This document shows positions 18 through 57,952 of a stretch of DNA of 64,000 nt, one piece after another (the stretch's first letter is position 1; each line of letters starts with the position of its first letter). Position numbers and translations under genes: made by a program. Where the stretch lies: positions 142,128-206,127 of the forward strand of contig CAVVKW010000001.1 in NCBI GenBank assembly GCA_963749035.1, written 5' to 3'. The notes beneath the pieces are model-generated. The model had not been told where the DNA came from, did no database searches, and saw only the letters and a list, made by a program, of their open reading frames with translations. The stretch is from an uncultured Verrucomicrobiae bacterium (GTDB lineage Bacteria; Verrucomicrobiota; Verrucomicrobiia; Chthoniobacterales; JAATET01).

Positions 18-3761
<3,744 letters not shown>

Positions 3762-3767
3762 GCCAAA

Positions 3768-3800
3768 ACGCTCACGCGAAGCCGCGACGTCGCGAAGAAC
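3768..3800. repeat. GC-rich REP-like intergenic repeat (CTCACGCGAAG-CGCGA-G-CGCGAAG), copy just downstream of metH
   Basis: cgctcacgcgaagccgcgacgtcgcgaaga matches the reverse complement of 30857-30890 at about 24/27 positions. Related inverted copies lie at 3941-3995. Confidence 0.6.
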
Positions 3801-4193
3801 CTGTTCAACGGGAGCCGACGCACCCAGCGTCAGAAATGCTCCGCTTCCTCCTCAGCGACGTCCGAGCGACTGCTTCCCCGCCTGCTTCCAGATAACCTAA
3901 GACGAACTTCAGCAAATCACTGGTGGATCTTTGCGGCTCTGCGCCTCTGCGTGAGACCTGCGTTCATTTTATTTCCTTCGCGCCTTCGCGCGTTGACCCT
4001 CTCGCTCCCAGTCATCGTCTTTGCTCCCGCTCCTCCGCCCTTCGGGCTGCCTACCGGCAAGCTATGTCACTTGACTCCCGCTGGCTCCATTGTCTCGCCC
4101 TTCGGATCCGGCAGCCGCCGGAAGCCGATCCACTCTGCCCCGCGGCTTCCAGGCCGCCGGTGCTAACGTCCGGAATTCATTATCTCCAGACAT

Positions 4194-4234
4194 GAGAAAA
4201 CCCGTTTTGCCCCAATGGCCAAACGGGTTTTCTC
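4194..4234 (-). terminator. Rho-independent terminator-like hairpin downstream of hup
   Basis: Perfect inverted repeat gagaaaacccgttt / aaacgggttttctc with a 13-nt loop, 34 nt past the hup stop. On the minus strand the stem is followed by UUUUCUC. Confidence 0.7.
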
Positions 4235-4267
4235 GGTGCGGGGGGGAAATCCGCTAGGGGAAAAGTT

Positions 4268-4543
4268 CTACAGCAGTTCTTTGAATGCTTTTCCGGCGGT
4301 GAACTTCACGCTCTTCGACGCCTTGATCTTGATCTTTTCGCCTGTCTTGGGATTGACGCCGGTGCGTGCCTTGCGAGCCGCAACCTTGAACGTTCCAAAC
4401 CCAACGAGCTGGACAATCTTCGTTTTTTTGACACCAAGCTTGATCGAATCGATCACTGCCGCGAGAGCGCGTTCCGCGTCGGCTTTGCTTGCTTCCTTGC
4501 CGAGCGATTTCTGGACGGCTTCAACGAGTTCAACTTTGTTCAT
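4268..4543 (-). CDS. hup: HU family DNA-binding protein (91 aa from the internal ATG of ORF 4268..4597)
   Basis: [15 protein letters not shown]...[26 protein letters not shown] is a typical HU/IHF fold sequence. Start set at cat 4541-4543. Confidence 0.93.
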
Positions 4544-5821: not shown

Positions 5822-5862
5822 AGAAATCTGCGTCCTTCTGTTTAATCTGCGGACGAACCTCA
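5822..5862. repeat. REP-like repeat AATCTGCGTCC-n8-TTAATCTGCGGAC, diverged third copy
   Basis: agaaatctgcgtccttctgtttaatctgcggacgaacctcac shares the core (about 34/41) with the two 57-bp repeats flanking the CRISPR-Cas locus. Confidence 0.6.
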
Positions 5863-6429
5863 CATCCGCGGAATCGTGATCCCGCGCTGCTTCATGTATT
5901 TCCCCCCGCGATCCGCGTAGCTCGTTTCGCAAACCTCATCCCCCTGAAAAAACACCACCTGCGCCAGCCCTTCGTTCGCGTAGATCTTCGCGGGGAGCGG
6001 CGTGGTGTTGGAAATTTCCAACGTCACGTGACCCTCCCACTCGGGCTCGAACGGCGTCACGTTCACGATGATTCCGCACCGCGCATACGTCGATTTCCCC
6101 ACGCAGATCGTCAGCACATCCCGCGGAATCCGGAAGTATTCCACGCTTCTCGCCAGCGCGAACGAGTTCGGCGGCACGATGCAGATTTCCGTTTCCATGT
6201 CGACGAACGACCGGTCGTCGAACGCCTTCGGATCGACAACGGTATTGTAAACGTTCGTGAAAACCTTGAACTCCGAAGACACGCGAAGATCGTAACCATA
6301 ACTCGAAAGACCGTAGCTGATCAGTCGTTCTCCCGCGGGATCGTGCCGCACCTGCTCCTCGGAAAACGGCTCGATCATTCCCCGCTCCACCGCCATCCGA
6401 CGAATCCACTTATCTGAACAAACCGACAT
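5860..6429 (-). CDS. dcd: dCTP deaminase
   Basis: [22 protein letters not shown]...GYDLRV...KSTYARCGI...[15 protein letters not shown]. Start taken at the internal ATG (cat 6427-6429), which matches the canonical Dcd N-terminus. Confidence 0.93.
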
Positions 6430-30904: not shown

Positions 30905-32782
30905 ATGACTCCGCAAATGACCGAACTCGAGCGTCTCCGCCACTCCTGCGCCCACGTTCTCGCCACCGCCATTCTCAAAATCTGGCCCGACGCCCAGTTC
31001 GCCGCCGGCCCACCCGTCGACCAGGGCTTCTACTACGACGTCGACCTCGACCACCGCATCAGCCCCGAAGACTTCGAGAAAATCGAAGCCGCCATGAAGA
31101 CCGAGACCAAGGCCAACAACCCCTTCGAACGCGTCGAGATCTCTCGCGCCGAAGCCATCGCCCTCGCCGAAGCCGGCGAACTTGCCGCCCTCGGGCCCCG
31201 CTCCGCCCCGTCGAAGTTCAAACTCGATATCCTCACCCGCATCCCCGAAGGCGAGACCATCACCCTCTTCCGCAACGGCGAATTCACCGATCTCTGCGCC
31301 GGACCGCACGTTCCCCGCACCGGCAATCTCAAAGCCTTCAAGCTCACCCACGTCGCCAGCGCCTACTACCTCGGCGACGAAAACAACCCTCAACTCCAGC
31401 GCATCTACGGCACCGCCTTCAAGAACAAGACCGAGATGGCCGAGCACTTCGAGATGCTCGAAGAAGCCAAGCGCCGCGACCACCGCAAGATCGGCGCCGA
31501 GATGGGTCTCTTCGCCATGGACCCCGACTACGTCGGCCCCGGCCTCCCCTTGTGGCTACCAAAAGGCACCGTCCTCGTCGAAGAACTCGAAAAATTGGCG
31601 AAGGAAACCGAATTCGCCGCCGGCTACGACCGCGTCCGCACCCCGCACCTCGCCCGCGAGAAGATGTATCAGACCAGCGGCCACCTCCCCTACTACGAAG
31701 ACAGCATGTTCCCCCCGATGGAACTCAGCGAATCCTCCAACGGCGAAGCCGCTGACTCCTCCACTCAACCCTCAACACTCAACCCTCAACCCGCCGAAGG
31801 CGACTCCGACCGGTATTACTTGAAGGCGATGAACTGCCCGCACCACCACCGCATCTTCGCGGCGGAGCCCCGCAGTTACCGCGACCTTCCCCTCCGGTTC
31901 GCCGAATACGGCTGCTGCTACCGCTACGAGCAATCCGGCGAGCTCCTCGGCCTCATGCGCGTCCGCAGCATGCAGATGAACGACGCGCACATCTACTGCA
32001 CCGAAGAGCAGTTCGCCGACGAGTTCCGCGCCGTCAACGAGATGTATCTGAAGTATTTCAAGATCTTCGGCCTCGACCGCTACCAGATGCGGTTCAGCAC
32101 CCACGACCCCGCCAAGCTCGGCCAGAAGTTCGTCGACGACCCCGCCCTCTGGAAAAAAACCGAAGACATGGTCCGCCGCGTCCTCATCGACTCCGGCATT
32201 AACTACGTCGAAGTCCCCAACGAAGCCGCCTTCTACGGACCCAAGATCGACGTCCAGGTTTGGAGTGCCATCGGCCGCGAATTCACCATCGCCACCAACC
32301 AAGTCGACTTCGCCGTCCCGTCGAAATTCGGCCTCGTTTACAAGACCAGCGAGAATACCGAGGCCACCCCGCTCTGCATCCACCGCGCCCCGCTCGGCAC
32401 GCACGAGCGCTTCATCGGCTTCCTCATCGAGCACTACGCCGGCAATTTCCCCCTCTGGCTCGCCCCCGAGCAGGTCCGCATCATCACCATCGGCACCGAC
32501 GAACCGCTCGTCGACTACGCGCAAAAAATCCACGCCGAACTCCGCGCCCAGGGCGTCCGCGCCGAACTCGACGCCACCGCCGACAACATGAAAGGCAAGA
32601 TCCAGCACGCCGAGCAGCGCAAGGTCCACACCATGCTCGTCATCGGCATGCGCGACTTGGAAGCCGGCAACGTCAGCCTCCGCCTCCACGGCCAAGGCAA
32701 CAAAGGAGCCAAGCCCCGCAACGTCGCCATCGCCGATATCCTCACCCAAATCCGCGAACGCTCAGACTCATCCACAGAATAA
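30905..32782 (+). CDS. thrS: Threonine--tRNA ligase
   Basis: Editing-site motif HSCAHVLA, class II core (MNCPHHHRIF), anticodon-binding domain. Carries a heptamer-repeat-encoded insertion at 31764-31791. Confidence 0.96.
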   Translation: MTPQMTELERLRHSCAHVLATAILKIWPDAQFAAGPPVDQGFYYDVDLDHRISPEDFEKIEAAMKTETKANNPFERVEISRAEAIALAEAGELAALGPRSAPSKFKLDILTRIPEGETITLFRNGEFTDLCAGPHVPRTGNLKAFKLTHVASAYYLGDENNPQLQRIYGTAFKNKTEMAEHFEMLEEAKRRDHRKIGAEMGLFAMDPDYVGPGLPLWLPKGTVLVEELEKLAKETEFAAGYDRVRTPHLAREKMYQTSGHLPYYEDSMFPPMELSESSNGEAADSSTQPSTLNPQPAEGDSDRYYLKAMNCPHHHRIFAAEPRSYRDLPLRFAEYGCCYRYEQSGELLGLMRVRSMQMNDAHIYCTEEQFADEFRAVNEMYLKYFKIFGLDRYQMRFSTHDPAKLGQKFVDDPALWKKTEDMVRRVLIDSGINYVEVPNEAAFYGPKIDVQVWSAIGREFTIATNQVDFAVPSKFGLVYKTSENTEATPLCIHRAPLGTHERFIGFLIEHYAGNFPLWLAPEQVRIITIGTDEPLVDYAQKIHAELRAQGVRAELDATADNMKGKIQHAEQRKVHTMLVIGMRDLEAGNVSLRLHGQGNKGAKPRNVAIADILTQIRERSDSSTE

Positions 32783-32883: not shown

Positions 32884-32907
32884 TAAAGTCCTTTGAACGG
32901 ACAACCC

Positions 32908-35262
32908 ATGCAGTTCTTCGCCCACACCGATCCGGACCACCCCGATCCCGGCGATGCCGCCCGGCATTGGGAGCCCCTCTTCACGCCGTTCGGCGAAGGC
33001 CCGGACGAATGCCGGCAAGACGCCTGCAAAAGGTGCGAGTCGCTTGACCGCTTCCACGGCCACCTCAACAAAGTCGCTTGGTGGACCGCCAAATTCGCCG
33101 CAGAAATGTTTCCCCCCGGCCCCGACCGGGAATCCGCCCACCAATGGGGCACCCTCACCGGCCTCTGGCACGACCTCGGGAAATTTGCACCTGAGTGGCA
33201 GGACTATCTCGAAGCTAAATCCGATCCTCACTCGACCGAGATCGCCGGAAAACTCGATCATTCGTCGGCCGGAGCCCGACACGCCGTCAGCCGAATTCCC
33301 CACGTCGGCACCTTCCTGGCCTACTTAATCGCCGGACATCACGCCGGTTTGGCCGACGGAATTTCCGACTCGAATACCAGTCTCGAAAACCGCCTTCGAC
33401 TGCGCCCCACGTCTCTCGACGGCCCACCCGAACTTCTCGCGTTCGCAAATACTCTCCCACCCATTCCCCTAGCATCCGACTCCGGCCCCAGCCACGCATT
33501 TTTCCTCCGCTTCCTCTTCTCCGCCCTCGCCGACGCCGACTTCCTCTCCACTGAGGCGTTCATGTCCGCCGATCGCGCCCGCTTCCGCCCCACCGCGCAG
33601 CCCTCCATCGCCGCTCTCGAATCCACCCTTACCACCCACCTTGAGAATCTCGCCAGCAAAGCCCGCCCGTCCCCCGTCAATCAATACCGCGCCAACATCC
33701 TTCGCGATTGCCGATCAGCGGCCAACGCCCCCCCCGGCCTCTTCTCCCTCACCGTCCCCACGGGCGGCGGGAAGACCCTCTCGTCCCTGGCTTTCGCCGT
33801 CAGTCATGCCCGCATTCACGACCTCCGACGGATCATCTACGTAATCCCCTACACCTCCATCATCGAGCAAAACGCCGCTGTCTTCCGGGAAGCCCTCTCC
33901 GCACTCGGCCCGGACGTCGTCCTTGAGCATCACTCGAGCTTCGACCCCGACAAGGAGACCACCACCTCCCGCCTCGCCACCGAGAACTGGGACGCCCGCC
34001 TCATCGTCACCACCAACGTCCAATTTTTCGATTCCCTCCACGCTCACAAAACCTCCCGCTGCCGAAAACTCCACCGCATCGCCCGTTCGGTCGTCATCCT
34101 CGACGAGGCCCAATCCCTTCCCACCAAGTTTTTAGCCCCCTGCCTTCGCACCCTCGAAGAACTCACAGCCCACTATCAGACCTCCGTCGTTCTCTGCACC
34201 GCGACCCAGCCCGCCATCATCCGAAACGATGAATTTAAAATCGGCCTCCAGCCGCCCCGTGAGATCATCCCCGATCCCGCCGACCTCTACCAGTCCCTCC
34301 GCCGCGTCACCACCACCCGCCTACCTGGAAAAACTCTCGACGAACCCCTCATCCACCACCTTCGCGATCACCCCCAGGCCCTCTGCATCGTCAATACCCG
34401 CCGCCACGCCCGTTGTCTCTTCGACCTGCTTCCGAACGATCCCGCTCGTTTCCACCTTTCCGCCCTCGTGTGTCCCGAGCACCGCACCGAAAAGCTCCGC
34501 ACTATCAAACACCGTCTCGACACCGACCTCTCCGTTCATCTCATCTCGACTCAACTCATCGAAGCTGGCGTCGACATTGACTTCCCCGTTGTCTTCCGAG
34601 CACTCGCCGGTCTCGACTCCATCGCCCAATCGGCAGGCCGCTGCGATCGCGAAGGCCGCCTCACCGCCGCAGCCGGCACTCCCGCCGGCCGCCTGTTCCT
34701 TTTCGAGCCACCAGCCGCTCCACCTCCCGGCTTTCTCGCCTCCACCGCCGCCTCCGCCGCCGAAGTCCTGTCCGCCGACCCGACTGATCCCCTCGATCTC
34801 TCCGTGATCGAATCCTATTTCCGGACCCATTACTGGAAACACGAGAACTCCACCGACGAAAAAAACATCCGCGACTGCTGGCCGCGCGAGCCGCTACGGC
34901 ATCCCCGCCAACTCCTCCAGTATAAGTTCAAGACCTGCGGCGAAACCTTCCGCCTGATCGATAACGACTACACGCAACCCGTCCTCATCCCCTACGGCGA
35001 CAAAGGCCGTCACCTCTGCGACCTGCTCCGCGAGACTTTCGACCCCTCCGAAATCCGCGACCTCGCCCGAAAGCTCCAGCGCTTCACCGTCAACATCCCC
35101 CCACACCAGCACGCCGCCCTACTTCGTGCCGGAATTCTCATCCCCCTCCACGACACGCGCTTTTTTCTTCTCAATTCCGCGCCACACTACGACGACGAAT
35201 GCGGCCTCCATCCCGAGCCCGACCTCACTCTCGACCCCTGCCATTTTCTTATCGCCGGATGA
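32908..35262 (+). CDS. cas3: Cas3 HD nuclease / SF2 helicase (type I-C)
   Basis: HD region (HLNKVAWW..LWHDLGKF..LDHSSAGARH); helicase motifs (TVPTGGGKT, VILDEAQ, LCTATQP); C-terminal domain. ATG 32908 preferred over TTG 32893. Confidence 0.95.
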   Translation: MQFFAHTDPDHPDPGDAARHWEPLFTPFGEGPDECRQDACKRCESLDRFHGHLNKVAWWTAKFAAEMFPPGPDRESAHQWGTLTGLWHDLGKFAPEWQDYLEAKSDPHSTEIAGKLDHSSAGARHAVSRIPHVGTFLAYLIAGHHAGLADGISDSNTSLENRLRLRPTSLDGPPELLAFANTLPPIPLASDSGPSHAFFLRFLFSALADADFLSTEAFMSADRARFRPTAQPSIAALESTLTTHLENLASKARPSPVNQYRANILRDCRSAANAPPGLFSLTVPTGGGKTLSSLAFAVSHARIHDLRRIIYVIPYTSIIEQNAAVFREALSALGPDVVLEHHSSFDPDKETTTSRLATENWDARLIVTTNVQFFDSLHAHKTSRCRKLHRIARSVVILDEAQSLPTKFLAPCLRTLEELTAHYQTSVVLCTATQPAIIRNDEFKIGLQPPREIIPDPADLYQSLRRVTTTRLPGKTLDEPLIHHLRDHPQALCIVNTRRHARCLFDLLPNDPARFHLSALVCPEHRTEKLRTIKHRLDTDLSVHLISTQLIEAGVDIDFPVVFRALAGLDSIAQSAGRCDREGRLTAAAGTPAGRLFLFEPPAAPPPGFLASTAASAAEVLSADPTDPLDLSVIESYFRTHYWKHENSTDEKNIRDCWPREPLRHPRQLLQYKFKTCGETFRLIDNDYTQPVLIPYGDKGRHLCDLLRETFDPSEIRDLARKLQRFTVNIPPHQHAALLRAGILIPLHDTRFFLLNSAPHYDDECGLHPEPDLTLDPCHFLIAG

Positions 35263-35352
35263 CCCTCTCCTTCTGCACGAACGCAAGGTTGAAATAAGCC
35301 CTATTCTCAATAGGCTTCTGCAAAAGGGAAATACCAAGACCGACCCGCGACC

Positions 35353-35586
35353 ATGCAAACCATCGACTGCGCCCACATCCCATTCCCCGCATCACTCCTT
35401 GAGTCGCTTAAACACGGCGAAACGATCGCCGTGCTCGACAAATCCCGCACGCTCGCCTTCATCGTTCCCGGGTCACCTTCCACTAAATCCCGCCCGTTTG
35501 GTTGCGCCAAGGGAGAATTCACGCTCGCCGACGACTTCAACGACCCGGACCCGGAAGTCGAAAGCCTGTTCTACGGAACAAACTGA
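35353..35586 (+). CDS. Phd/YefM-like type II antitoxin (PIN-associated)
   Basis: 77 aa. The C-terminal RPFGCAKGEFTLADDFNDPDPEVESLF is the typical tail of antitoxins paired with VapC-type PIN toxins. Same architecture as the antitoxin at 57333. Confidence 0.7.
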   Translation: MQTIDCAHIPFPASLLESLKHGETIAVLDKSRTLAFIVPGSPSTKSRPFGCAKGEFTLADDFNDPDPEVESLFYGTN

Positions 35587-35593
35587 ATCGCAA

Positions 35594-35691
35594 AATCGAA
35601 TCCCCGACCCGCAAAAACGAGCCGGGGAAATTCGATGGCAATGAGAGCCTTCGGATTAGAATTTCAATCCCCACCACGAAATCGTAGCGAC
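35594..35691 (-). ncRNA. Candidate degenerate mini-CRISPR RNA (psi-repeat, 34-nt psi-spacer, hairpin/terminator), creA/creR-like
   Basis: Minus strand 35691->35661 reads GTCGCTACGATTTCGTGGTGGGGATTGAAAT; the array repeat is GTCGCCCCCTCACACGGGGGCGCGGATTGAAAC. The first 5 nt are identical and 9 of the last 11 match. A replacement 6-bp stem (CGCUAC/GUGGUG) with a 6-nt loop keeps the geometry. A 34-nt spacer-like segment follows (35660->35627). Then comes a 10-bp hairpin CCCCGGCUCG-UUUUUG-CGGGUCGGGG (35627->35602) followed by AUUCGAUUUUG, starting where the next repeat would start. Confidence 0.6.
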
Positions 35692-35694
35692 CTC

Positions 35695-35726
35695 TTGACA
35701 ATAGCTGCCCAACCTCTATTGTTCAA
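35695..35726. promoter_or_regulatory. Palindromic pair of overlapping divergent sigma70-like promoters
   Basis: TTGACAATAG-n11-CTATTGTTCAA. Plus strand: TTGACA (35695-35700), 16 nt, TATTGT (35717-35722). Minus strand: TTGAAC (35726->35721), 17 nt, TATTGT (35703->35698). The predicted minus-strand TSS (about 35691) is the first nt of the psi-repeat. Confidence 0.5.
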
Positions 35727-35729
35727 GCC

Positions 35730-35766
35730 TTCTCTAAACAGAATGCTCTATGTCCACCGTTAGATA
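35730..35766 (+). promoter_or_regulatory. TTC-PAM-flanked partial protospacer matching the psi-spacer (candidate Cascade operator)
   Basis: TTC (35730-35732), then TCTAAACAGAATGCTCT, against psi-spacer TCTAATCCGAAGGCTCT. That is 14/17 identical, with mismatches at positions 6, 8 and 12. Identity is 4/17 over the remaining positions. The site lies between the predicted plus-strand TSS and the PIN ATG (35770). Confidence 0.55.
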
Positions 35767-35769
35767 GAT

Positions 35770-36153
35770 ATGAATTTTCTCTGCGATACTCATGCCTTTC
35801 TTTGGTTCGCCGGCGGGGATTCACGACTGCGTCAGGATCAGCGAGAAGCCCTCGAGGACACCGGAAACATCATTTTCCTAAGTTCGGTCTCATCCACTGA
35901 GATTGCCATCAAGCACAGCATCGGCAAACTCCCGTTGCCGGAATCCCCCGAGATCTACGTTCCACGGCTTCGCGAACGAGTTCAATTTTCGGAACTCCCG
36001 TTGGATGAACGAGCGTCCCTCCGCCTCGCGACCTTACCCCTCCTCCACCGCGATCCCTTTGATCGCCTCCTGATCTGCCAAGCTCTCACCCTCGAAATCA
36101 CAATCGTAACCTCCGACTCCCACGTCCGCCAATACGACGTCCCGACCCTCTAA
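35770..36153 (+). CDS. vapC: PIN-domain (VapC-like) toxin embedded between cas3 and cas5
   Basis: FLCDTHAFLWF...EIAIKHSIGKLPLP...HRDPFDRLLICQA...IVTSD. Same subfamily as the free-standing PIN at 57566. Confidence 0.85.
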   Translation: MNFLCDTHAFLWFAGGDSRLRQDQREALEDTGNIIFLSSVSSTEIAIKHSIGKLPLPESPEIYVPRLRERVQFSELPLDERASLRLATLPLLHRDPFDRLLICQALTLEITIVTSDSHVRQYDVPTL

Positions 36154-36162
36154 TCTCACCCC

Positions 36163-36849
36163 ATGTCCTACGGTATCAAAATCCACGTCTGGGGCGAATT
36201 CGCCTGTTTCACCCGCCCGGAAATGAAAGCCGAGCGCGTTACCTACGAAGTCATCACGCCCTCAGCCGCCCGCGGCATCCTCGAAGCCATTTACTGGAAG
36301 CCCCAAATCCGCTGGGTCATTGACAAACTTCACCTCCTCACCCCCGTCCGCTTCACCAGCATTCGCCGTAACGAAGTGGGCAAAAAAATGTTCTCGCCCT
36401 CTCAATCCGTCATGAGCAGCGCAGAGCCGGTCACCGTCGGACTTGCCGTCGAAGACGAGCGCCAGCAACGCGCCTCTCTCGTCCTCCGCGATGTCGCCTA
36501 CATCATCGAAGCCCATTTCGAACTCATCGACCGCACCGAACCCGAAGGCAAGCACCTCGACATGTTCAACCGCCGCGCCCGCCGCGGCCAATACTTTCAC
36601 CATCCCTATCTTGGTACCCGCGAATTCCCCGCCGACTTCGCCCTCATCGAATCCGATCACCCCGCTTCACAGCTCCCGCCCGCCAACCGCGACAGGGACT
36701 TCGGCTTCATGCTCCACGACATCGAATTCGATCAGGATCCCCGGACCAAAAAAGTCCGCAACACCACGCCCCGCTTTTATCCAGCCGTCATGAAGAATGG
36801 CGTCATCGACGTGCAGCAATGCCTTCGCAACTCCCCCCTCGGTCGATGA
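36163..36849 (+). CDS. cas5: Cas5c (Cas5d) crRNA endoribonuclease, type I-C
   Basis: MSYGIKIHVWGEFACFTRPEMKAERVTYEVITPSAARGILEAIYWKP is the canonical Cas5 I-C N-terminus. Confidence 0.93.
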   Translation: MSYGIKIHVWGEFACFTRPEMKAERVTYEVITPSAARGILEAIYWKPQIRWVIDKLHLLTPVRFTSIRRNEVGKKMFSPSQSVMSSAEPVTVGLAVEDERQQRASLVLRDVAYIIEAHFELIDRTEPEGKHLDMFNRRARRGQYFHHPYLGTREFPADFALIESDHPASQLPPANRDRDFGFMLHDIEFDQDPRTKKVRNTTPRFYPAVMKNGVIDVQQCLRNSPLGR

Positions 36850-38729
36850 TCCTCCAATCGCTCAACCAGCTTTACGGACGCCTCGCCGAAGACGACGACT
36901 ACCAACTCCCCCAGCCCGGCTACGCCACTCAGAACATCACCTTCCGCATCGTTCTTAATCCCGACGGCTCCCTTCAAAACATGGAAGACGCCCGCCAACC
37001 CATCACCGAGACACTCAGATCGGGAAAGACCAAAACCAGGCACGTCCCCCGGCAAATGCTCGTTCCCGATCTCGGCGGACGCACTTCCGGCATCAAACCC
37101 TACTTCCTCAGCGACAAACTCGCCTACCTCACCGGCTACGACAAGGACTCCGGCAAACGCGCCTTGGCGGAAAACCAGTTCGCCGCCTCCAAAGAGCTTC
37201 ACATCGCACTCGCCGCCCAGATCGAATCCGACGAATTCAAAGCCGTCTGTGCTCATTTCGAGCACTTCCACTGGGAGACCGCAACCGATCTGCTCGAAGA
37301 ATGCGCCCCATTCGCCTCCACCGGCTTCGGTGTTTTCCGCGTCCTGCCGGTCCGCGCCAACGTCCACGAACTCCAATCCATCCGCGACTACTGGGCCGCG
37401 AGAAAACCAGCCGCAACGGATGAACCCGAAACCGAAGGCCAATGCCTCGTCACCGGCGAAACCCTCCCGCTCGCCAGAATTCACGAGCCAAAATTTGGAG
37501 GCTTCGGAACCGACAAGCCCCTCCTAGTCTCCTTCAACGACCCAGCCTACCGCTCCTACGGCAAAGACCAATCCTACAACGCCCCCGTCTCCCGCCAAGC
37601 CACCTTCCAATACTGCAACGCCCTCAACGCACTCCTCTCCGGCCCTCGCTCCCACCGCCATCGCATTACGATCGGTGATGTCACCACCGTCTTTTGGACC
37701 GAACACGAAACCATCATCGAAGAGAAATTCGCCGCATTCTTCCGGGGCGAAATTGACACTCCTGAGAACCCGGCATCCCCGGCATCCGAAGACCGCAACG
37801 CCCACCAACGCCTCGACGCATTTCTTCGCCTCTTCCGCCGGGGCTCAGCCACCACTCTCGAAGACCTCGACGTCGATCCCGGCACAAAATTTTACATCCT
37901 CGGAGTCTCCAAGGTCACCAAAAGCCGCCTCGCCGTCCGTTACTGGCACGTCGGCACCATCCGCGAAATGATCGGCCGCCTCCGCGATCACTTCGACTGC
38001 CTCGCCATCCAACGCGCTTTCGACAACGAACCCGAATTCCCCTCCGCCAATCGCCTCCTCGATCAGACCGCCCCATTTCGAAACGGCAAATACGACCGCA
38101 AGACCATCTCCCCACTCCTCGGCGGCCAGCTTCTCCAGTCCATCCTTGGAGGCACACCCTATCCAATTGCCCTCGTCCAAGGCGTCCTTCACCGCCTCCG
38201 CGCCAACGACCCCATCAACTATCTCAAAGCTTCCATTCTCAAAGCCTTCCTAACCCGCAACCGCCAACAACCCATCCCCATGAGCCTTAATTTCGAAATC
38301 ACCGAACCCGCTTACCTAATGGGCCGCCTCTTCGCAGCCTTGGAAAAAACCCAGGAAGACGCCCTCGGCAAAGTCAACGCCGGACTCCGCGAGCGTTTCT
38401 ACGGCAGTGCATCCGCTTCGCCAGCGAGCGTCTTCCCCCGCATCCTTCGAACCTATCAGCATCACCTTGCCAGAATGACTAGCGGAGCTTTGGCCGATCA
38501 TGTCGGAGCGGAGAGGGCCGCGAAGGCAAAGGTCAGTCGCGAAAAATTAATCCGATCCATTCACGACTCAATCGATGCGAATATCGGCTATCCCGTTCAT
38601 TTCACATTGGAGGAACAGGGGCTGTTCGCCATCGGCTATTACCAACAGCGCCAGGCATTTTTTAAACCTTCTGGATCATCATCCGATCTCAACAACCAAG
38701 ACTCAACCACCACCCAAACCAACCCATGA
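36846..38729 (+). CDS. cas8c: Cas8c large subunit (Csd1), type I-C
   Basis: [17 protein letters not shown]... with an ATGA overlap onto cas5. Size and position are typical. Confidence 0.9.
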
Positions 38730-39583
38730 ACCGCACCGACTTCATCTACCTCTTCGATTGCACCGACGCCAACCCGAACGGCGACCCCGACGCCGGCAAC
38801 CTTCCCCGCCTCGATCCCGAGACCGGCCAGGGCCTCACCACCGACGTCATGCTCAAACGGAAAATCCGCAATTTCGTTCAACTCACCAAAGGCGACGACC
38901 CCGGCCACGACATCTACGTCAAAGAAAAAGCCGTCCTCAATAACCAGCACGCCCGGGCCTACCAGGCACTGGAGCTCGATCCGAAAAAGGCAAAACAGGA
39001 ACAGCGCGATCAGGCTAAGGCGTGGATGTGCCAGAATTTCTACGACATCCGCACCTTCGGAGCCGTCATGACGACAGACGTGAATTGCGGCCAGGTCCGC
39101 GGTCCCATCCAACTCTCCTTCGCTCGCTCCATCGACCGAATCGTCACCGCCGAGCACTCAATCACCCGCATGGCCGTCACGAAAATCGAAGACGCCGGAA
39201 AGCAGTCCGGAGACAACCGCACCATGGGCCGCAAATTCACCGTCCCCTACGGCCTCTACAAAGCCCAAGGCTTCATCAACCCCTTCCTTGCCAAACAAAC
39301 AGGCTTCGACGACGACGATCGTGAGCTTCTGTTTCACGCGCTCGAAAACGCCTTTCAGTTCGACCAATCCGCCGCCCGCCCCGCAGGCTCCATGGCACCC
39401 CGCGCCCTGATCATTTTCGAACACAACTCCGAACTCGGTAGCGCCCCCAGCAATAAGCTTTTCGAGAGCGTTACCATCACACGCAAACCCGGTGTCACTA
39501 CCCCCCGATCCTTCGCCGACTACGAAGTCACCATCGACGAATCCGCCATCCCCGACGGCATCACCCTCACCCGCCGAATCTGA
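38726..39583 (+). CDS. cas7: Cas7c backbone subunit (Csd2), type I-C
   Basis: [34 protein letters not shown].. is the Csd2 signature. ATGA overlap with cas8c. Confidence 0.93.
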
Positions 39584-40295: not shown

Positions 40296-40508
40296 ATGAG
40301 AACGACACTTAACCTCGATGACGACCTCATCGGTCAAGCCATGGAACTGACCGGAATCACGCAGAAAACCGAACTACTCCACCGCGGCCTACGCGAGCTC
40401 ATCGAACGCGAAGCCGCGCGACAACTCGCTGAGATGGGCGGCACCGCACCCGACTTCCAGCTCGCTTCCCGGCACCGCCGCCAAAAATGCCATGCCCGTC
40501 CTCGTTGA
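40296..40508 (+). CDS. vapB: VapB-type antitoxin (MRTTLNLDDDL family) between cas4 and cas1
   Basis: MRTTLNLDDDLIGQAMELTGITQKTELLHRGLRELIERE. Overlaps the downstream PIN gene by 17 nt. Confidence 0.85.
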   Translation: MRTTLNLDDDLIGQAMELTGITQKTELLHRGLRELIEREAARQLAEMGGTAPDFQLASRHRRQKCHARPR

Positions 40509-40875
40509 TACGTCCGTCTGGGTGGATCATTTGAATCGCGGTGAGCCCGCCCTCGCCCGCCTCCTTAGAGCGGGACGCGTCTGCACCCACGAGATCGTCC
40601 TCGGCGAGCTTCTCAGCGGCAACTTACCGGCTCGTTCACGAACGTCGGCAATCTTCCTCAACCTCCCCCGCCTGCAAACTGAGAAGTTTAAAGTAACACT
40701 CCGCTTCATCGAACATCACCGTCTCCACGGCCGAGGTTTGAATTGGAATGATCTCGGACTGCTCGCGTCCGTGGCAGTGGCCGACGCCTCCGAATTTTGG
40801 ACCCGAGACAAAACTCTTCGAACTTCCGCCGCCGAAATCGAAATCCCGCTCTTCGACGAAGGCATCAGCGACTGA
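40492..40875 (+). CDS. vapC: PIN-domain VapC toxin between cas4 and cas1
   Basis: MPVLVDTSVWVDHLNRGEP...THEIVLGELL...DLGLLASV. Confidence 0.85.
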   Translation: MPVLVDTSVWVDHLNRGEPALARLLRAGRVCTHEIVLGELLSGNLPARSRTSAIFLNLPRLQTEKFKVTLRFIEHHRLHGRGLNWNDLGLLASVAVADASEFWTRDKTLRTSAAEIEIPLFDEGISD

Positions 40876-42428: not shown

Positions 42429-45400
42429 GTCGCCCCCTCACACGGGGGCGCGGATTGAAACATTTCTCGAAAAACCTCCGAATCCACGGCCAGACCGTCG
42501 CCCCCTCACACGGGGGCGCGGATTGAAACAAATAGCTGAATCTCCAAGGGGCGGCTCAAGAGGTCGCCCCCTCACACGGGGGCGCGGATTGAAACTGAGC
42601 TATATCCGTCTTGAGGTGATACTGCGTCTGTCGCCCCCTCACACGGGGGCGCGGATTGAAACAGCAGCCCAGCGAGTTCTGTTTGCAGAGCTAGGATGTC
42701 GCCCCCTCACACGGGGGCGCGGATTGAAACGCTCAGCGACGTCCGCAGTTCCACGCTCGCCACGGTCGCCCCCTCACACGGGGGCGCGGATTGAAACGAC
42801 TTCTTCGCGAGCTGTTCAGCGTTCCGATTCTGGTCACCCCCTCACACGGGGGCGCGGATTGAAACGTGGGGCTGGAGCGGCTGGCGCTGGACAAGCGGAG
42901 GTCGCCCCCTCACACGGGGGCGCGGATTGAAACTGATCGGTTGTTTTCATGATTTCGTTTCAGTTGGCGTCGCCCCCTCACACGGGGGCGCGGATTGAAA
43001 CACCACTGGCGGCTTCTCGCAGTGCCTGGGGATCAGTCGCCCCCTCACACGGGGGCGCGGATTGAAACCCGCTGTGATGTCCCGCAAAACCGGCTCCGAT
43101 CGGTCGCCCCCTCACACGGGGGCGCGGATTGAAACACTTATTGCTATCCGGAAACGACATATTGATTGTGTCGCCCCCTCACACGGGGGCGCGGATTGAA
43201 ACAGCGGCATCTCCGCCGCCAGCTGCACCGAGCCTTGTCGCCCCCTCACACGGGGGCGCGGATTGAAACACCGCCGCCACCCCCGGCGTCAGATTCGGCC
43301 CCTGTCGCCCCCTCACACGGGGGCGCGGATTGAAACAGCGTCTGATCGACCGGGCGACCGTTCGCGCCCTCGTCGCCCCCTCACACGGGGGCGCGGATTG
43401 AAACGTGCGGACCGTGCGGTTCCTCCCAAGGCAGGGGCGGTCGCCCCCTCACACGGGGGCGCGGATTGAAACTTGAGCTACGAGCTGATCGACTCGTGCA
43501 AATACGTCGCCCCCTCACACGGGGGCGCGGATTGAAACGATCCGGATCCCGGACCGGCAGGAGATCGCGGCGGGTCGCCCCCTCACACGGGGGCGCGGAT
43601 TGAAACCAAGCGCGATCGCGGTTCCCTCGACGTCGCCTAGTCGCCCCCTCACACGGGGGCGCGGATTGAAACCGCCCCCGCCGACCTCGGCGACACCGCC
43701 GGGTCAGTCGCCCCCTCACACGGGGGCGCGGATTGAAACAGGCGAAGATCGGCAAAGCGGCGACCGCTGAAGAGTCGCCCCCTCACACGGGGGCGCGGAT
43801 TGAAACGCCCGCCTCCGGGAAGAAAACTCCGGCTCAGAATGTCGCCCCCTCACACGGGGGCGCGGATTGAAACAGCTCCGCCAGAGACTGCGCCCGCTCC
43901 GCTTGGGCGTCGCCCCCTCACACGGGGGCGCGGATTGAAACATCCTGGTAAGACCAATATCCCGCCGCCCGTGGATGTCGCCCCCTCACACGGGGGCGCG
44001 GATTGAAACTGGCTGCTGGGTGACGACGCGTTGACGCGGCGACGGTCGCCCCCTCACACGGGGGCGCGGATTGAAACTTCGTCCTCATCCATATCGATGA
44101 TTATCCACCAGCTGTCGCCCCCTCACACGGGGGCGCGGATTGAAACACCTCCAGCCGCACCGAGTTCGCAGCCTTCACCGGTCGCCCCCTCACACGGGGG
44201 CGCGGATTGAAACGGGTCGCGACCACGGTAGGACAGACGGCGTCGCTGTCGCCCCCTCACACGGGGGCGCGGATTGAAACAGTGACTCAATGGCGGGCGT
44301 CAACTATCTGCTCAAGTCGCCCCCTCACACGGGGGCGCGGATTGAAACATGTTGCCCTGCTGGACGGGGGGCGGCATCGTTCAGGTCGCCCCCTCACACG
44401 GGGGCGCGGATTGAAACGACAGGCGCGTGCCGGAAGGATTCTGGGCGTGGGGGTCGCCCCCTCACACGGGGGCGCGGATTGAAACACTGGTGACAATGCC
44501 GATAAGGATGAGGCGCTCGGTCGCCCCCTCACACGGGGGCGCGGATTGAAACCATTATCGAAGAGCCCTCTGGTTATCGACCGAGCGTCGCCCCCTCACA
44601 CGGGGGCGCGGATTGAAACGGATTTTTCGCTGGGGGATGGCGAGGCGGTTCGCCGTCGCCCCCTCACACGGGGGCGCGGATTGAAACTTCGCCGCCACCT
44701 TCCGATCACCCGTCCCCAGAGGTCGCCCCCTCACACGGGGGCGCGGATTGAAACCGGGCCTGACCGGCGCGATCACGACAACTCGCCGGTCGCCCCCTCA
44801 CACGGGGGCGCGGATTGAAACCCCCTCCGGCGACTGCGTCACCATCAGCCCCGGATGTCGCCCCCTCACACGGGGGCGCGGATTGAAACACCGCCTTGTT
44901 CGGCGAGCGCGCATCTTATGTGGTCGCCCCCTCACACGGGGGCGCGGATTGAAACCGTTTTGGAGAGTCAGTCGCACTTCCTTGAGCGTCGTCGCCCCCT
45001 CACACGGGGGCGCGGATTGAAACAAAGTCGTCCCCGCAGCATTTTCGCAGCTATCCGGTCGCCCCCTCACACGGGGGCGCGGATTGAAACTTCGCACTCT
45101 TAGCATCCCAAATGTTATTTAATTTGCCCCCTCACACGGGGGCGCGGATTGAAACCTCGCCGGCTGGGTGATCGCGGCCGTCCCGCTGCTGTCGCCCCCT
45201 CACACGGGGGCGCGGATTGAAACGCCGTCTTCACGCTCAAGATGCTCTGCCGCCATGTCGCCCCCTCACACGGGGGCGCGGATTGAAACATACATCGCAC
45301 CATTCTTCCGGATCTTCGTCCCGTCGCCCCCTCACACGGGGGCGCGGATTGAAACAGGTAATCGACTTCCTAAGATTCGTCGGGAGGAGGTCGCCCCCTC

Positions 45401-46090
45401 ACACGGGGGCGCGGATTGAAACCATGGAATCAACTTGGCAACATCATCCTCCGTAATGTCGCCCCCTCACACGGGGGCGCGGATTGAAACAGGTTCCCCC
45501 ATTTGTTTCAGTAAAAGATTCCGGTCGCCCCCTCACACGGGGGCGCGGATTGAAACCTCGTCGGTCATGGTCGGCGGGAATACAGCGAGGGTCGCCCCCT
45601 CACACGGGGGCGCGGATTGAAACAAACCTCAGTTCGCTCCGCTCGTGGAATCAGGTGTCGCCCCCTCACACGGGGGCGCGGATTGAAACCCCTTTGGTTT
45701 CGGTGCCGGTTTCGGAGTGGTCTGTCGCCCCCTCACACGGGGGCGCGGATTGAAACGTCGCGAGGATCTGATTCCCGATTTGATCCAGCGTCGCCCCCTC
45801 ACACGGGGGCGCGGATTGAAACAACTGAATCGACGTGATCTGGGCTCCGGACCACGGTCGCCCCCTCACACGGGGGCGCGGATTGAAACGCATTTTATGC
45901 GATTTATTTTCGGGCGTCGAAACGGTCGCCCCCTCACACGGGGGCGCGGATTGAAACTCACGCCCGCGCATCGCCCACGTGAACGCGTTAAGTCGCCCCC
46001 TCACACGGGGGCGCGGATTGAAACCATTGCTCGACGCATTCCCGATCGACTGCCCATGTCGCCCCCTCACACGGGGGCGCGGATTAAGAT
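42429..46090 (+). CRISPR. CRISPR array, 55 repeats / 54 spacers, type I-C repeat
   Basis: The 33-nt repeat GTCGCCCCCTCACACGGGGGCGCGGATTGAAAC was counted by hand at every unit. Spacers are 32-36 nt. Variant repeats: 42833 (G4A), 45123 (5-prime GTC->TTT), and terminal 46058 (..GGATTAAGAT). Confidence 0.99.
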
Positions 46091-47813: not shown

Positions 47814-47867
47814 TCGCCCATGTCGCCCATGTCGCCCAGGTCGCCCGGGTCGCCCGGGTCGCCGGAG
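47814..47867. repeat. Six tandem 9-bp units TCGCCCATG -> TCGCCCGGG
   Basis: tcgcccatg x2, tcgcccagg, tcgcccggg x2, tcgccggag, lying between convergent genes. Confidence 0.9.
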
Positions 47868-49008: not shown

Positions 49009-49457
49009 CTTTCTACACCCGCAAACGGCGAAGCCCAGCGGTCATCATCGTCTCGCTCATCGACATTCTCGCCATTCTGCTGATCTTTTTCATCGTCACT
49101 ACGACCTTCAAAAAGACGCAGCCGCAACTCGAGATCAACCTCCCCGATTCGAAAACCGCCGCTCCCGCAAGCGAGGCGGAAACCGACCCCCTCGTCCTCC
49201 GCGTCAAATCCGCCGAAGAAATCACCCTCGACGACGAACCGATCACGCTCGACGCCCTCGGCCCGGCGCTGAAATCCGCCCGCGAGTCCTCACCCGATCG
49301 CCCCGTCGCCATGCAGGCCGATCGCGAGGCGCCCTTCGGAGTCATCGTCTCCGTGCTCGACGCCCTCAAAGACGCCGGCATCAAGAACCTCCCCGCTTTC
49401 ACCAACCCGCTCCCCGCTGACAGCAATCCCCAATCCGCAATCCCCAATCCGCAATGA
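49005..49457 (+). CDS. exbD: ExbD/TolR biopolymer transport protein
   Basis: MTFYTRKRRSPAVIIVSLIDILAILLIFFIV...; ATGA overlap with exbB. The C-terminal tail is encoded by heptamer repeats. Confidence 0.85.
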   Translation: MTFYTRKRRSPAVIIVSLIDILAILLIFFIVTTTFKKTQPQLEINLPDSKTAAPASEAETDPLVLRVKSAEEITLDDEPITLDALGPALKSARESSPDRPVAMQADREAPFGVIVSVLDALKDAGIKNLPAFTNPLPADSNPQSAIPNPQ

Positions 49458-57332: not shown

Positions 57333-57569
57333 ATGAAATCTGTCGCCACTCACGAAGCCAAGACCCATCTCTCGCGCCTGCTGAGCGAGATTGCCAACGG
57401 AGAAGAATACCTGATCACCCGCGGTCGCACTCCAGTCGCGCGCCTGTCGCCGATCGAGAGACAATCCAACCGCCCGAAGGTCGGTGAGATGATGGACCGC
57501 CCGTGCACCGTCTCGACTGAAGCCCTGCGCCCCCTGACGACCGACGAACTCGCAGCTTGGGGCTTGTGA
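57333..57569 (+). CDS. Phd/YefM-family antitoxin
   Basis: MKSVATHEAKTHLSRLLSEIANGEEYLITRGRTPVARLSP. Confidence 0.88.
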   Translation: MKSVATHEAKTHLSRLLSEIANGEEYLITRGRTPVARLSPIERQSNRPKVGEMMDRPCTVSTEALRPLTTDELAAWGL

Positions 57570-57952
57570 AGATCCTTCTCGACACCTGCACGTTTCTTTG
57601 GCTCGCACTGGAACCGACCCAGATCTCGCCCGCTGCCCGCGAGGTCCTGAACGATGAGAAGAATCGGCTCGCGCTCAGTCAGGTGAGCGTTTGGGAAATC
57701 ACCCTGAAGCACTCCGTCGGGAAACTTCCGCTACCTTTTCCACCCCGCGAATGGATCCCGACCCGTCGGGCCTTCTTCCAGATTCAGCCCGTCCAAACGG
57801 GTGAGTCCGCTGTCTTCCGGAGCGGCGAGCTTCCCCGGATCCACGCAGATCCGTTCGACCGCCTCCTCGCCGCCCACGCCATCGAAGAGAATTTCACGAT
57901 CGTTTCCCCCGACACCCCGCTCTCCCACCTCGGAGCCGCTCGCATCTGGTAA
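57566..57952 (+). CDS. vapC: PIN-domain VapC toxin (free-standing pair)
   Basis: VKILLDTCTFLWL...EITLKHSVGKLPLP...ADPFDRLLAAHA. GTG 57566 overlaps the antitoxin stop (GTGA). Confidence 0.88.
   Translation: MKILLDTCTFLWLALEPTQISPAAREVLNDEKNRLALSQVSVWEITLKHSVGKLPLPFPPREWIPTRRAFFQIQPVQTGESAVFRSGELPRIHADPFDRLLAAHAIEENFTIVSPDTPLSHLGAARIW

Follow-up and report, generated by a model that had tools for sequence, protein, structure and literature searches.

A candidate CreA/CreR-like RNA gene between a VapB/Phd-like antitoxin and a PIN toxin in a verrucomicrobial type I-C cas operon

CRISPR systems of several types use crRNA-like (CRISPR RNA-like) RNAs in regulation. CreA acts together with RNA toxins in the CreTA modules of types I-B (haloarchaea) and I-F (Pseudomonas) (PMC9458426; 10.64898/2026.06.02.729485). 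In CrePA of type I-F Acinetobacter, the CreA-repressed toxin is a protein, CreP, with a KilA-N domain (10.1101/2024.01.05.574328; PMC12737573). CreR has been shown in types I-B, I-E and V-A and was noted in type I-C by manual search, and the CreA of H. hispanica represses both creT and cas8 (10.1101/2023.03.10.532045). Shmakov et al. (2023) predicted computationally that mini-arrays regulate toxin-antitoxin cargo located between cas3 and the effector genes, mainly in type I-D (PMC10120712). Here we analysed a stretch of 64,000 nucleotides (the window) from an uncultured Verrucomicrobiae bacterium of the order Chthoniobacterales (contig CAVVKW010000001.1, positions 142,128 to 206,127), in which a candidate crRNA-like RNA gene stands between an antitoxin gene and a PIN-domain toxin gene of a type I-C CRISPR-Cas locus. 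To our knowledge, experiments have demonstrated CRISPR-repressed toxins only among small RNAs, in types I-B and I-F, and for a single KilA-N protein, in type I-F. In the literature searched, no paper was found in which a Cascade-repressed toxin circuit is connected with a PIN toxin or with type I-C.

The window carries a complete type I-C locus on its plus strand, as judged by Pfam assignments. The 77-aa antitoxin (VapB/Phd-like, 35353-35586) and its cognate partner, a 127-aa PIN-domain (VapC-like) toxin (35770-36153), are both on the plus strand but not adjacent, and the 184-bp gap between them holds a candidate antisense RNA gene. This is a mini-CRISPR (35691-35591, minus strand) composed of a repeat-like unit, a 33-nt spacer-like segment and a terminator-like hairpin. 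From the sequence and its relatives, we consider it quite probable that a crRNA-like RNA gene of the CreA/CreR kind has been inserted, in antisense orientation, between antitoxin and toxin inside the cas operon. The CRISPR machinery would then most likely keep the PIN toxin, and the cas genes behind it, switched off.

Like CreTA (Li et al. 2021), the module has a degenerate mini-CRISPR in the cas cluster, built of one or two repeat-like units in which the handle is the conserved part; the spacer is partly complementary to a TTC-flanked site at the toxin promoter, and the repeat stem has diverged from the cognate array. The logic would also be shared, in that loss of Cascade derepresses the toxin; the module here is known from sequence alone. 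In contrast to CreT, which is a small tRNA-sequestering or proline-codon RNA, the toxin here is a 127-aa PIN protein accompanied by a protein antitoxin gene. Furthermore, the subtype is I-C, with processing by Cas5c and without Cas6, and the 3' element is a terminator hairpin with no recognisable second repeat. With a PIN protein and not a small RNA as its toxin candidate, the module falls outside CreTA (type VIII). CrePA is similar to the circuit proposed here in that transcription of a protein toxin is repressed by Cascade guided by a crRNA-like RNA, with the toxin proposed to fire when an anti-CRISPR disables the effector, and in that the toxin gene lies directly downstream of a CreA-type target (here 35733-35749, with the PIN ATG at 35770). 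However, the toxin here would be a PIN ribonuclease and not a KilA-N/FtsZ inhibitor, a conventional protein antitoxin is retained, which would give two layers of neutralisation, and the toxin gene heads the cas operon. Having only a PIN domain and lying in a type I-C and not a type I-F locus, the module is also distinct from CrePA.

Like CreR, the mini-CRISPR is degenerate and lies upstream of effector genes, with its target at the promoter driving them, and it predicts an autorepression that senses crRNA load and anti-CRISPRs. Unlike in CreR, a toxin gene is found between the regulated promoter and the cas genes, and in one related locus (L166, described below) the target is not at a cas promoter. 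The mini-arrays of Shmakov et al. also have spacers that partly match promoters of protein toxin-antitoxin genes in type I loci, were likewise inferred computationally, and lie in a region that has been described as a gene-shuffling hotspot. However, they belong to I-D clades and stand upstream of the whole cargo, whereas the guide gene here splits the pair so that only the toxin is downstream of the target, in type I-C loci of Verrucomicrobiota. The canonical type II VapBC/Phd-PIN pairs, two of which occur in the window (57333-57952 and 40296-40875), share the order of a small antitoxin gene followed by a PIN gene with intact acidic active-site residues. Their genes overlap or abut and are co-transcribed, whereas those of the module are 184 bp apart and separated by a candidate antisense RNA gene, its terminator and separate predicted promoters.

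Both a Cascade-repressed protein toxin and toxin-antitoxin cargo aimed at by mini-arrays are thus already known in principle. The initial annotation of this stretch had regarded a PIN-domain toxin that keeps a protein antitoxin as a new variant on the premise that CreT toxins are small RNAs, a premise made out of date by CrePA (PMC12737573; 10.1101/2024.01.05.574328) and by the predicted toxin-antitoxin cargo (PMC10120712). What appears to be new is the subtype I-C, the PIN toxin, and a type II pair split by a guide gene. If the reading is true, the principle extends to type I-C, to the PIN/VapC ribonucleases, which are the commonest bacterial toxin class, and to a protein pair that is rewired rather than replaced.

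The repeat-like unit, psi-R1 (35661-35691, minus strand, GTCGCTACGATTTCGTGGTGGGGATTGAAAT), has retained the GTCGC at its 5' end, a hairpin, and the 3' part that codes for the handle. Compared with the repeat of the CRISPR array in the window (55 copies of GTCGCCCCCTCACACGGGGGCGCGGATTGAAAC, 42429-46090, plus strand), which is the reference for psi-R1 and the source of competing crRNAs, the first 5 nt and 9 of the last 11 nt are the same. When both strands of the 64 kb were searched, the handle motif GGATTGAAA was found 55 times in the array and once elsewhere, namely in psi-R1, and the combination GTCGC-N14-22-GATTGAAA was unique to psi-R1 outside the array. RNA folding gave an 8-bp hairpin for psi-R1. 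The likeness to the repeat claimed by the initial annotation therefore stands, and all of the sequence strings that it quoted were found at their positions.

The spacer-like guide, psi-S (35628-35660, minus strand, UCUAAUCCGAAGGCUCUCAUUGCCAUCGAAUUU), was read directly from the sequence. It had been described as 34 nt long; it measures 33 nt before the 10-bp stem and does fall within the length range of the array spacers (~32-36 nt). The 3' element (35591-35627, minus strand) was recovered by terminator scan and folding as a 10-bp hairpin, CCCCGGCUCG-UUUUUG-CGGGUCGGGG (35627->35602), followed by AUUCGAUUUUG, and the whole 112-nt RNA folds as the repeat hairpin plus the terminal hairpin (z = -5.2), in agreement with the original description. 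The initial annotation had proposed that this hairpin could serve as both 3' handle and terminator. It is terminator-like; a faint likeness of its tail to the end of a repeat (GGGGATTCGA versus GCGGATTGAA) is confined to the window, and the hairpins of the relatives are of the plain terminator type. The window element is possibly the remnant of a second repeat. The idea that it is a true second repeat was rejected, as the relatives carry unrelated terminator hairpins. The gap was also correctly described as AT-richer (47% GC versus 62% for the window).

The guide matches a partial protospacer (35733-35749, plus strand, TCTAAACAGAATGCTCT) at 14 of 17 positions, with mismatches at 6, 8 and 12, and this site is directly preceded by TTC (35730-35732), the type I-C protospacer-adjacent motif (PAM). 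PAM and target together lie 21-40 nt upstream of the PIN ATG. This was the best match of psi-S in the 64-kb window on either strand, with or without a PAM, and the next PAM-flanked match reached 11/17. None of 2000 shuffled spacers equalled it within the local 329 nt, and identity past position 17 dropped to 4/17. The match claimed by the initial annotation was thus reproduced; it is real and well above chance.

Relatives were sought in genomes and metagenomes with the PIN protein, and in a protein collection with the 77-aa protein and with Cas5c. The module of antitoxin, mini-CRISPR and PIN was found in about 13 type I-C loci of Verrucomicrobiota, which we refer to by number; besides the window, it is present in L002, L003, L004, L005, L009 (two copies, a and b), L074, L081, L092, L164 and L172. 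The antitoxin-PIN pair stands between cas3 and cas5 in the window, L009b, L164 and L172, and upstream of cas3 in L001, L002, L003, L005, L074, L081 and L092. In most loci cas5 or cas3 starts 4-45 nt after PIN: the distance to cas5 is 9 nt in the window, 4 nt in L164 and ~5 nt in L009b, and the distance to cas3 is 20-45 nt in L001-L003 and L081. The mini-CRISPR is located within the pair, between antitoxin and toxin, in 12 of 13 loci, whereas four close I-C relatives without the pair (L167-L170) are also without the mini-CRISPR.

The PIN protein of the window matched PF01850 (E 6e-11) and no other domain. A neighbour-joining tree was built from 135 unique PIN homologues. In it, an exclusive clade was formed by the 11 PINs that are linked to CRISPR loci and came from the genome and metagenome scans (window, L001-L005, both copies of L009, L074, L081 and L092; L164 and L172 were found later and left out). 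The PINs of module loci are only 49-67% identical. The catalytic residues D6, E44, D95/D98 and D116 were conserved in 10 of the 11 aligned sequences, the exception being L009a (APFDR). The 77-aa protein matched the NCBIfam model TA_VapB (NF050009) with its C-terminus at E 5e-5, below the cutoff, and this region corresponds to a VapB-type toxin-binding motif. The antitoxin is kept in all module-bearing loci (76-78 aa, motif RPxGLAKGEF..DF), and in many unrelated genomes, away from CRISPR loci, homologues of it are encoded directly upstream of PIN homologues.

Over ~160 PIN loci, the antitoxin-PIN gap was 160-270 bp in CRISPR loci versus ~25-45 bp outside, where the pairs counted were those with a detected antitoxin homologue. 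This comparison replaced the argument by which an insertion had originally been proposed, namely a paralogous free-standing pair at 57333-57952. The PIN protein of that pair is indeed 42% identical, but its antitoxin has no pairwise similarity to the 77-aa ORF (open reading frame) and is linked to it only through intermediate homologues, and the pair was dropped as evidence for insertion.

In every module locus but L001, the minus strand of the gap carries a near-canonical I-C repeat ending in GGATTGAAAC/T, a spacer and a strong hairpin, which lies 27-34 nt after the handle in all related loci. Across 15 repeat-like units and true repeats, the last 9-10 nt of the handle were invariant, and the repeat hairpin was maintained through compensatory changes in 4 of 6 pairs. 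In the three loci whose cognate array is known (window, L085 and L164), the stem sequence of psi-R1 is replaced, while the 5' (G/A)TCG is kept and the 3' 12-14 nt are identical to the cognate array. Kept ends with a replaced stem are the pattern described for CreA repeats (PMC9458426).

The spacers differ between loci, and the target changes along with the spacer. Over its first 16-19 nt, each spacer matches a site on the plus strand that lies 8-67 nt upstream of the PIN start. The trinucleotide before this site is TTC in the window, L002, L003, L009a/b, L074, L081, L092, L164, L165 and L172 (and also in L166) and TTT in L005; among the tabulated loci, 10 of 11 have TTC. Guides scored 12-15 of 15 against the target of their own locus and on average 7.6 across loci, with high cross-locus scores solely between evidently homologous spacers. 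The observed score was reached by none of 2000 shuffles in 8 of 10 loci, and by none of 300 in L165, L166 and L172. Compensatory changes of guide and target were also seen within homologous lineages, at position 2 (L003 versus L081) and at positions 7 and 16 (L005 versus L092). These data show that the guide-target match is maintained by selection.

The positions of the mismatches were then compared over seven independent spacer lineages. Positions 1-16 without 6 and 12 matched in 96 of 98 cases, whereas positions 6 and 12 matched in 3 of 14, no better than chance (Fisher p = 5e-11). The mismatches inside the matched stretch are at 6 and 12 in L003, L005, L074, L165 and L172, at 12 only in L002, and at 6, 8 and 12 in the window. 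Matching ends at 16-19 nt and is at chance level afterwards (20% at positions 19-24). It is known from the structure of Cascade that type I effectors leave every sixth base of the guide flipped out and unpaired. The mismatches at 6 and 12 are therefore what selection for RNA-DNA pairing in Cascade predicts, and the pattern, as read from these sequences, is a type I Cascade pairing signature that a protein operator, an mRNA stem or a plain antisense RNA does not predict. The stop at ~16-17 nt is consistent with selection for a binding that does not form the full R-loop by which Cas3 is licensed. Co-variation of spacer and target in homologous I-C loci, which the initial annotation had named as a check, was thus seen together with the 6/12 pattern and the PAM; the exclusive PIN clade, the spacer turnover with targets following and the 6/12 mismatches all support its CreA/CreR-like reading.

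Besides informing on this module, the comparative set shows which guide positions matter for type I-C binding without cleavage (three 5-nt segments, 6 and 12 free, a stop near 17 nt), and these data could be used in the design of I-C guides for CRISPR interference and of kill switches.

A predicted promoter of PIN and the following cas genes, TTGACA-16-TATTGT (35695-35722, plus strand), was found by promoter scan and places the transcription start at ~35729. The predicted promoter of the crRNA-like RNA (35698-35726, minus strand) was read directly from the sequence, with the -35 TTGAAC at 35726->35721, a 17-nt spacing, the -10 TATTGT at 35703->35698 and +1 at ~35691. The two overlap face to face. 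L164 shares this layout (plus-strand TTGACA-16-TATCAT), and the plus-strand promoters of the window and L164 place the target at ~+1 to +20. In L003 and L074, TTGACA/TTGACT is located instead 23-31 nt inside the protospacer. In either layout the target site would lie within the Cascade footprint.

When the loci were aligned on the first base of psi-R1, most showed TTGnnn ~35 nt and TAnnnT ~7-12 nt upstream (TTGAAC/TATTGT in the window, TTGAAC/TATGTT in L003, TTGCAT/TAGTGT in L164, and equivalents in L002, L081 and L165), and transcription would therefore start at the repeat itself. The PAM lies exactly 3 nt upstream of the -35 of the guide gene in the window, L002, L003, L009, L081 and L164; the target therefore abuts the predicted promoter of the guide gene. 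A strict promoter scan of the related gaps recovered only the plus-strand promoter of the window, and an Rfam scan of 35000-36300 at permissive E-values returned only noise (mir-2568, NsiR1) and no small-RNA family.

From this arrangement we infer the transcription, Cas5c processing, repression, toxicity and physiological trigger of a PIN circuit. The promoter at 35726->35698 would start an RNA at the first base of the degenerate repeat, Cas5c would cut after the repeat hairpin to leave the 11-nt handle GGGAUUGAAAU, and the RNA would end at the terminator-like hairpin, which would substitute for a 3' repeat hairpin. Loaded Cascade would read the TTC PAM at 35730 and pair over ~16-17 nt, that is, three 5-nt segments, too short for a full R-loop and Cas3 recruitment. 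Sitting on the start site of TTGACA-16-TATTGT, it would block transcription of PIN and cas5c-cas8c-cas7, while the antitoxin would be transcribed separately, from upstream. Should Cascade be lost or mutated, be titrated by crRNAs or meet an inhibiting anti-CRISPR, the cell would make PIN and more Cas protein with no matching rise of antitoxin, and the outcome would be growth arrest or addiction to the CRISPR system. Seen across loci, the common design suggested by the sequences is a Cascade target between antitoxin and toxin, by which toxin transcription would be uncoupled from antitoxin transcription. This suggests a rule that is searchable across cas-embedded toxin-antitoxin pairs.

The operon structure of the window bears on the reach of this repression. 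PIN is followed after 9 nt by cas5c (36163-36849, Pfam Cas_Cas5d), and the terminator scan found no plus-strand terminator between them; the Cascade genes cas5c-cas8c-cas7 (36163-39583, plus strand; Pfam Cas_Cas5d, Cas_Csd1, Cas_Cas7) are therefore probably co-transcribed with PIN and driven by the regulated promoter. Autoregulation of the Cascade genes by the mini-CRISPR is plausible, and by analogy with the CreA of H. hispanica both toxin control and cas autoregulation likely operate in the window. If the toxin is indeed guarded in this way, it is the first cistron of an autorepressed Cascade operon, and inhibition of Cascade would both replenish Cas proteins and shift the toxin:antitoxin ratio toward abortive infection.

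A second, unrelated pair with a mini-CRISPR of its own was found in L166 (ENA ERZ25039505 contig_9618, 3600-4470). Here, a FitA-like ribbon-helix-helix antitoxin and a 131-aa PIN protein lie between cas3 and cas5, antisense to the cas genes. A mini-CRISPR, GTCGCGCCCTCCCGGGCGCGCGGATTGAAAC, stands immediately after PIN in the same orientation and is followed by the guide AAAGTTTCGAGATTGG, which matches TTC-AAAGTATCGAGATT at 13 of 14 positions with its sole mismatch at position 6. The target lies in the 66-nt gap between antitoxin and toxin, where the PIN start is 17 nt away and the cas5 promoter ~300 bp. Guide and target share a strand and are ~480 nt apart, with the PIN gene between them. L171, whose FitA/PIN genes overlap and have no mini-CRISPR, was considered as a counterpart without the guide for L166 and was rejected, as the pairs are not homologous. 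We would give even chances to the broader proposal that type II PIN pairs were converted into CRISPR guards in verrucomicrobial I-C systems at least two times independently, once in the antitoxin-77/PIN clade and once in the FitA/PIN pair of L166, giving a three-part module of a protein antitoxin, Cascade plus crRNA-like RNA as a transcriptional antitoxin, and a ribonuclease toxin.

Several observations weigh against a Cascade-guarded toxin. The protein antitoxin makes the size of a toxic effect on derepression uncertain and may blunt toxicity. The mismatch at position 8 is in the seed, and pairing in the window may be weak. Of the two divergent promoters initially proposed, the plus-strand one scored 10/12 and stands; the minus-strand TTGAAC-17-TATTGT scored 8/12 to consensus, under the scanner threshold, though its equivalent recurs in relatives, and the promoter positions in the relatives are guesses read from the sequences aligned at the psi-R1 start. 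L164, the closest relative, has a pair of only ~11 nt that 45 of 300 shuffles equalled over the whole locus, which is not significant alone; it was rejected as a stand-alone test and counts only as a homologous, weaker copy of the window arrangement. The match in L081 is weak (15 of 2000 shuffles), and the mini-CRISPR of L004 has no target beyond a 5-nt seed in the whole 5.5-kb contig. In L001 the toxin-antitoxin pair is kept and no mini-CRISPR was found anywhere in the locus, while in L165 (Logan SRR20217183, 412-1120) PIN is absent but antitoxin and mini-CRISPR are retained, together with a TTC-flanked target that matches at 14/16 and is again mismatched at 6 and 12. Neither component therefore strictly requires the other.

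The last two loci also speak for a different explanation, in which the selected function is autorepression of the cas operon as in CreR, with PIN and antitoxin as passenger cargo at the operon head and toxin control incidental. PIN stands directly ahead of cas5 (window, L164, L009b) or cas3 (L001-L003, L081), cas genes follow the target in L165, L001 retains the pair without a mini-CRISPR, and CreR elements have been reported in type I-C by manual search (10.1101/2023.03.10.532045). However, autorepression alone leaves it unaccounted for that the mini-CRISPR is inside the toxin-antitoxin pair in 12 of 13 loci and absent from L167-L170, which lack the pair, and that the PINs linked to CRISPR loci make up an exclusive clade and keep their catalytic residues. 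The most telling case is L166, whose target is inside an opposite-strand toxin-antitoxin pair, away from any cas promoter. Moreover, control of toxin and of cas genes is not exclusive, given that the CreA of H. hispanica represses creT as well as cas8. We therefore regard an explanation by cas autorepression alone as unlikely.

The two 14/17 arms could also be taken as a Cascade-independent inverted repeat, since on the plus strand 35644-35660 and 35733-35749 flank the palindromic promoter. Such a repeat might serve as an operator, bound by the antitoxin or by some other DNA-binding protein; it might form a long-range stem in an mRNA that reads through from antitoxin to PIN; or it might belong to a plain antisense RNA. 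Type II antitoxins do often bind palindromes in their own operons. But an operator or RNA stem predicts neither an invariant CRISPR 5' handle beside one arm nor a TTC beside the other, and none of these possibilities predicts mismatches at every sixth position or a sharp stop at 16-17 nt. In L166, with guide and target on the same strand ~480 nt apart, there is no inverted repeat around the promoter at all. We consider this explanation highly improbable. Most improbable is a non-functional relic, that is, a decayed array fragment or stray repeat whose self-match arose by chance or stems from a self-targeting spacer in decay: the repeat is degenerate, more so in the window than in relatives, the match is only partial, and stand-alone repeats often occur in cas loci (in 34% of those of type I-C; PMC10120712, Table 1), but the match is the best in 64 kb and the comparative data already contradict a relic, with the module conserved across loci whose PINs are only 49-67% identical and with differing spacers that still match their own locus with PAM and 6-nt periodicity.

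Several individual loci showed further features. L001 (Akkermansiaceae metagenome-assembled genome (MAG) JAYVNM010000205.1) has the closest PIN homologue in the genome collection (61% identity). Its 161-bp gap (5840-6000) is kept without a repeat-like unit. It contains two tandem copies of GGCCACGTCCGGGT and a fragment, CGCACTGCGAA, that is similar to the terminator hairpin found in L002 and L003, which suggests that the mini-CRISPR was lost secondarily. In L165, the target is followed by ~400 nt of non-coding DNA and then by divergent cas5-like, cas8-like, cas7 and cas3 genes, and an N-terminal fragment of cas3 lies upstream. In L009 (Verrucomicrobiales MAG JBBRYQ010000047.1, 600-6400), the whole module occurs twice in tandem, and fragments of cas3 and cas5 separate the copies. 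Between the copies, position 14 of psi-S is C versus T, of which T matches the target, and the handle is GGATTGAAAC versus GGGTTGAAAC; the upstream PIN copy is without one catalytic Asp (APFDR).

L172 (Logan SRR17267536, 560-1000, minus strand) has two more two-repeat mini-arrays upstream of cas3. In each, one repeat is a perfect GTCGCCTCCC...GGATTGAAAC-type repeat, the spacer measures 33 nt, and the second repeat has a degenerate 3' end; the 9.7-kb locus yielded no self-target for them. Other PIN pairs were present at several junctions in the close I-C relatives L171 and L172, namely MazE-PIN between cas3 and cas5, and FitA-PIN and Phd-PIN between cas7 and cas4. In the window, a second VapB (PF09957, E 1e-16)/PIN (PF01850, E 1e-9) pair, unrelated to the first, lies between cas4 and cas1 (40296-40875); its genes overlap by 17 nt and it is without a mini-CRISPR. 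Together with the free-standing pair at 57333-57952, the window thus holds three PIN toxin-antitoxin pairs, two of them within the cas operon. The intergenic junctions of verrucomicrobial I-C operons appear to be hotspots for insertion of such pairs.

Upstream of the antitoxin gene, a shared motif, A(A/T)NCCAAG(G/A)CC(G/A/T)AC, was found ~15-25 nt before the start in the window (35262-35352), L002, L003, L009a, L081 and L165, and in several loci it is preceded by CCGGCTTTTCTC. The window also has an imperfect palindrome, AAGCCCTATTCTCAATAGGCTT, at ~35299-35320. These elements may be the antitoxin's own promoter or operator.

The remaining features of the window concern the CRISPR-Cas locus itself and its surroundings. 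The plus-strand gene order is cas3 (HD nuclease-helicase, 32893-35262; Pfam DEAD, Cas3-like_C_2, Cas3_HD) and the 77-aa ORF before PIN, and cas5c, cas8c, cas7, cas4, cas1 and cas2 after it. This gene set without cas6, together with the repeat end ATTGAAAC, assigns the locus to type I-C. Variant array repeats occur at 42833 (GTCACC..., 1 mismatch), 45123 (TTTGCC..., 2 mismatches at the 5' end) and 46058 (the terminal GGATTAAGAT, 3 mismatches); the degenerate terminal repeat is consistent with a leader at the cas2-proximal end. Outside the CRISPR locus, short tandem repeats were found at 47814-47863 (TCGCCCAGG x5.6), 31762-31792 (CTCAACC x4) and 49423-49455 (CAATCCC x4.6).

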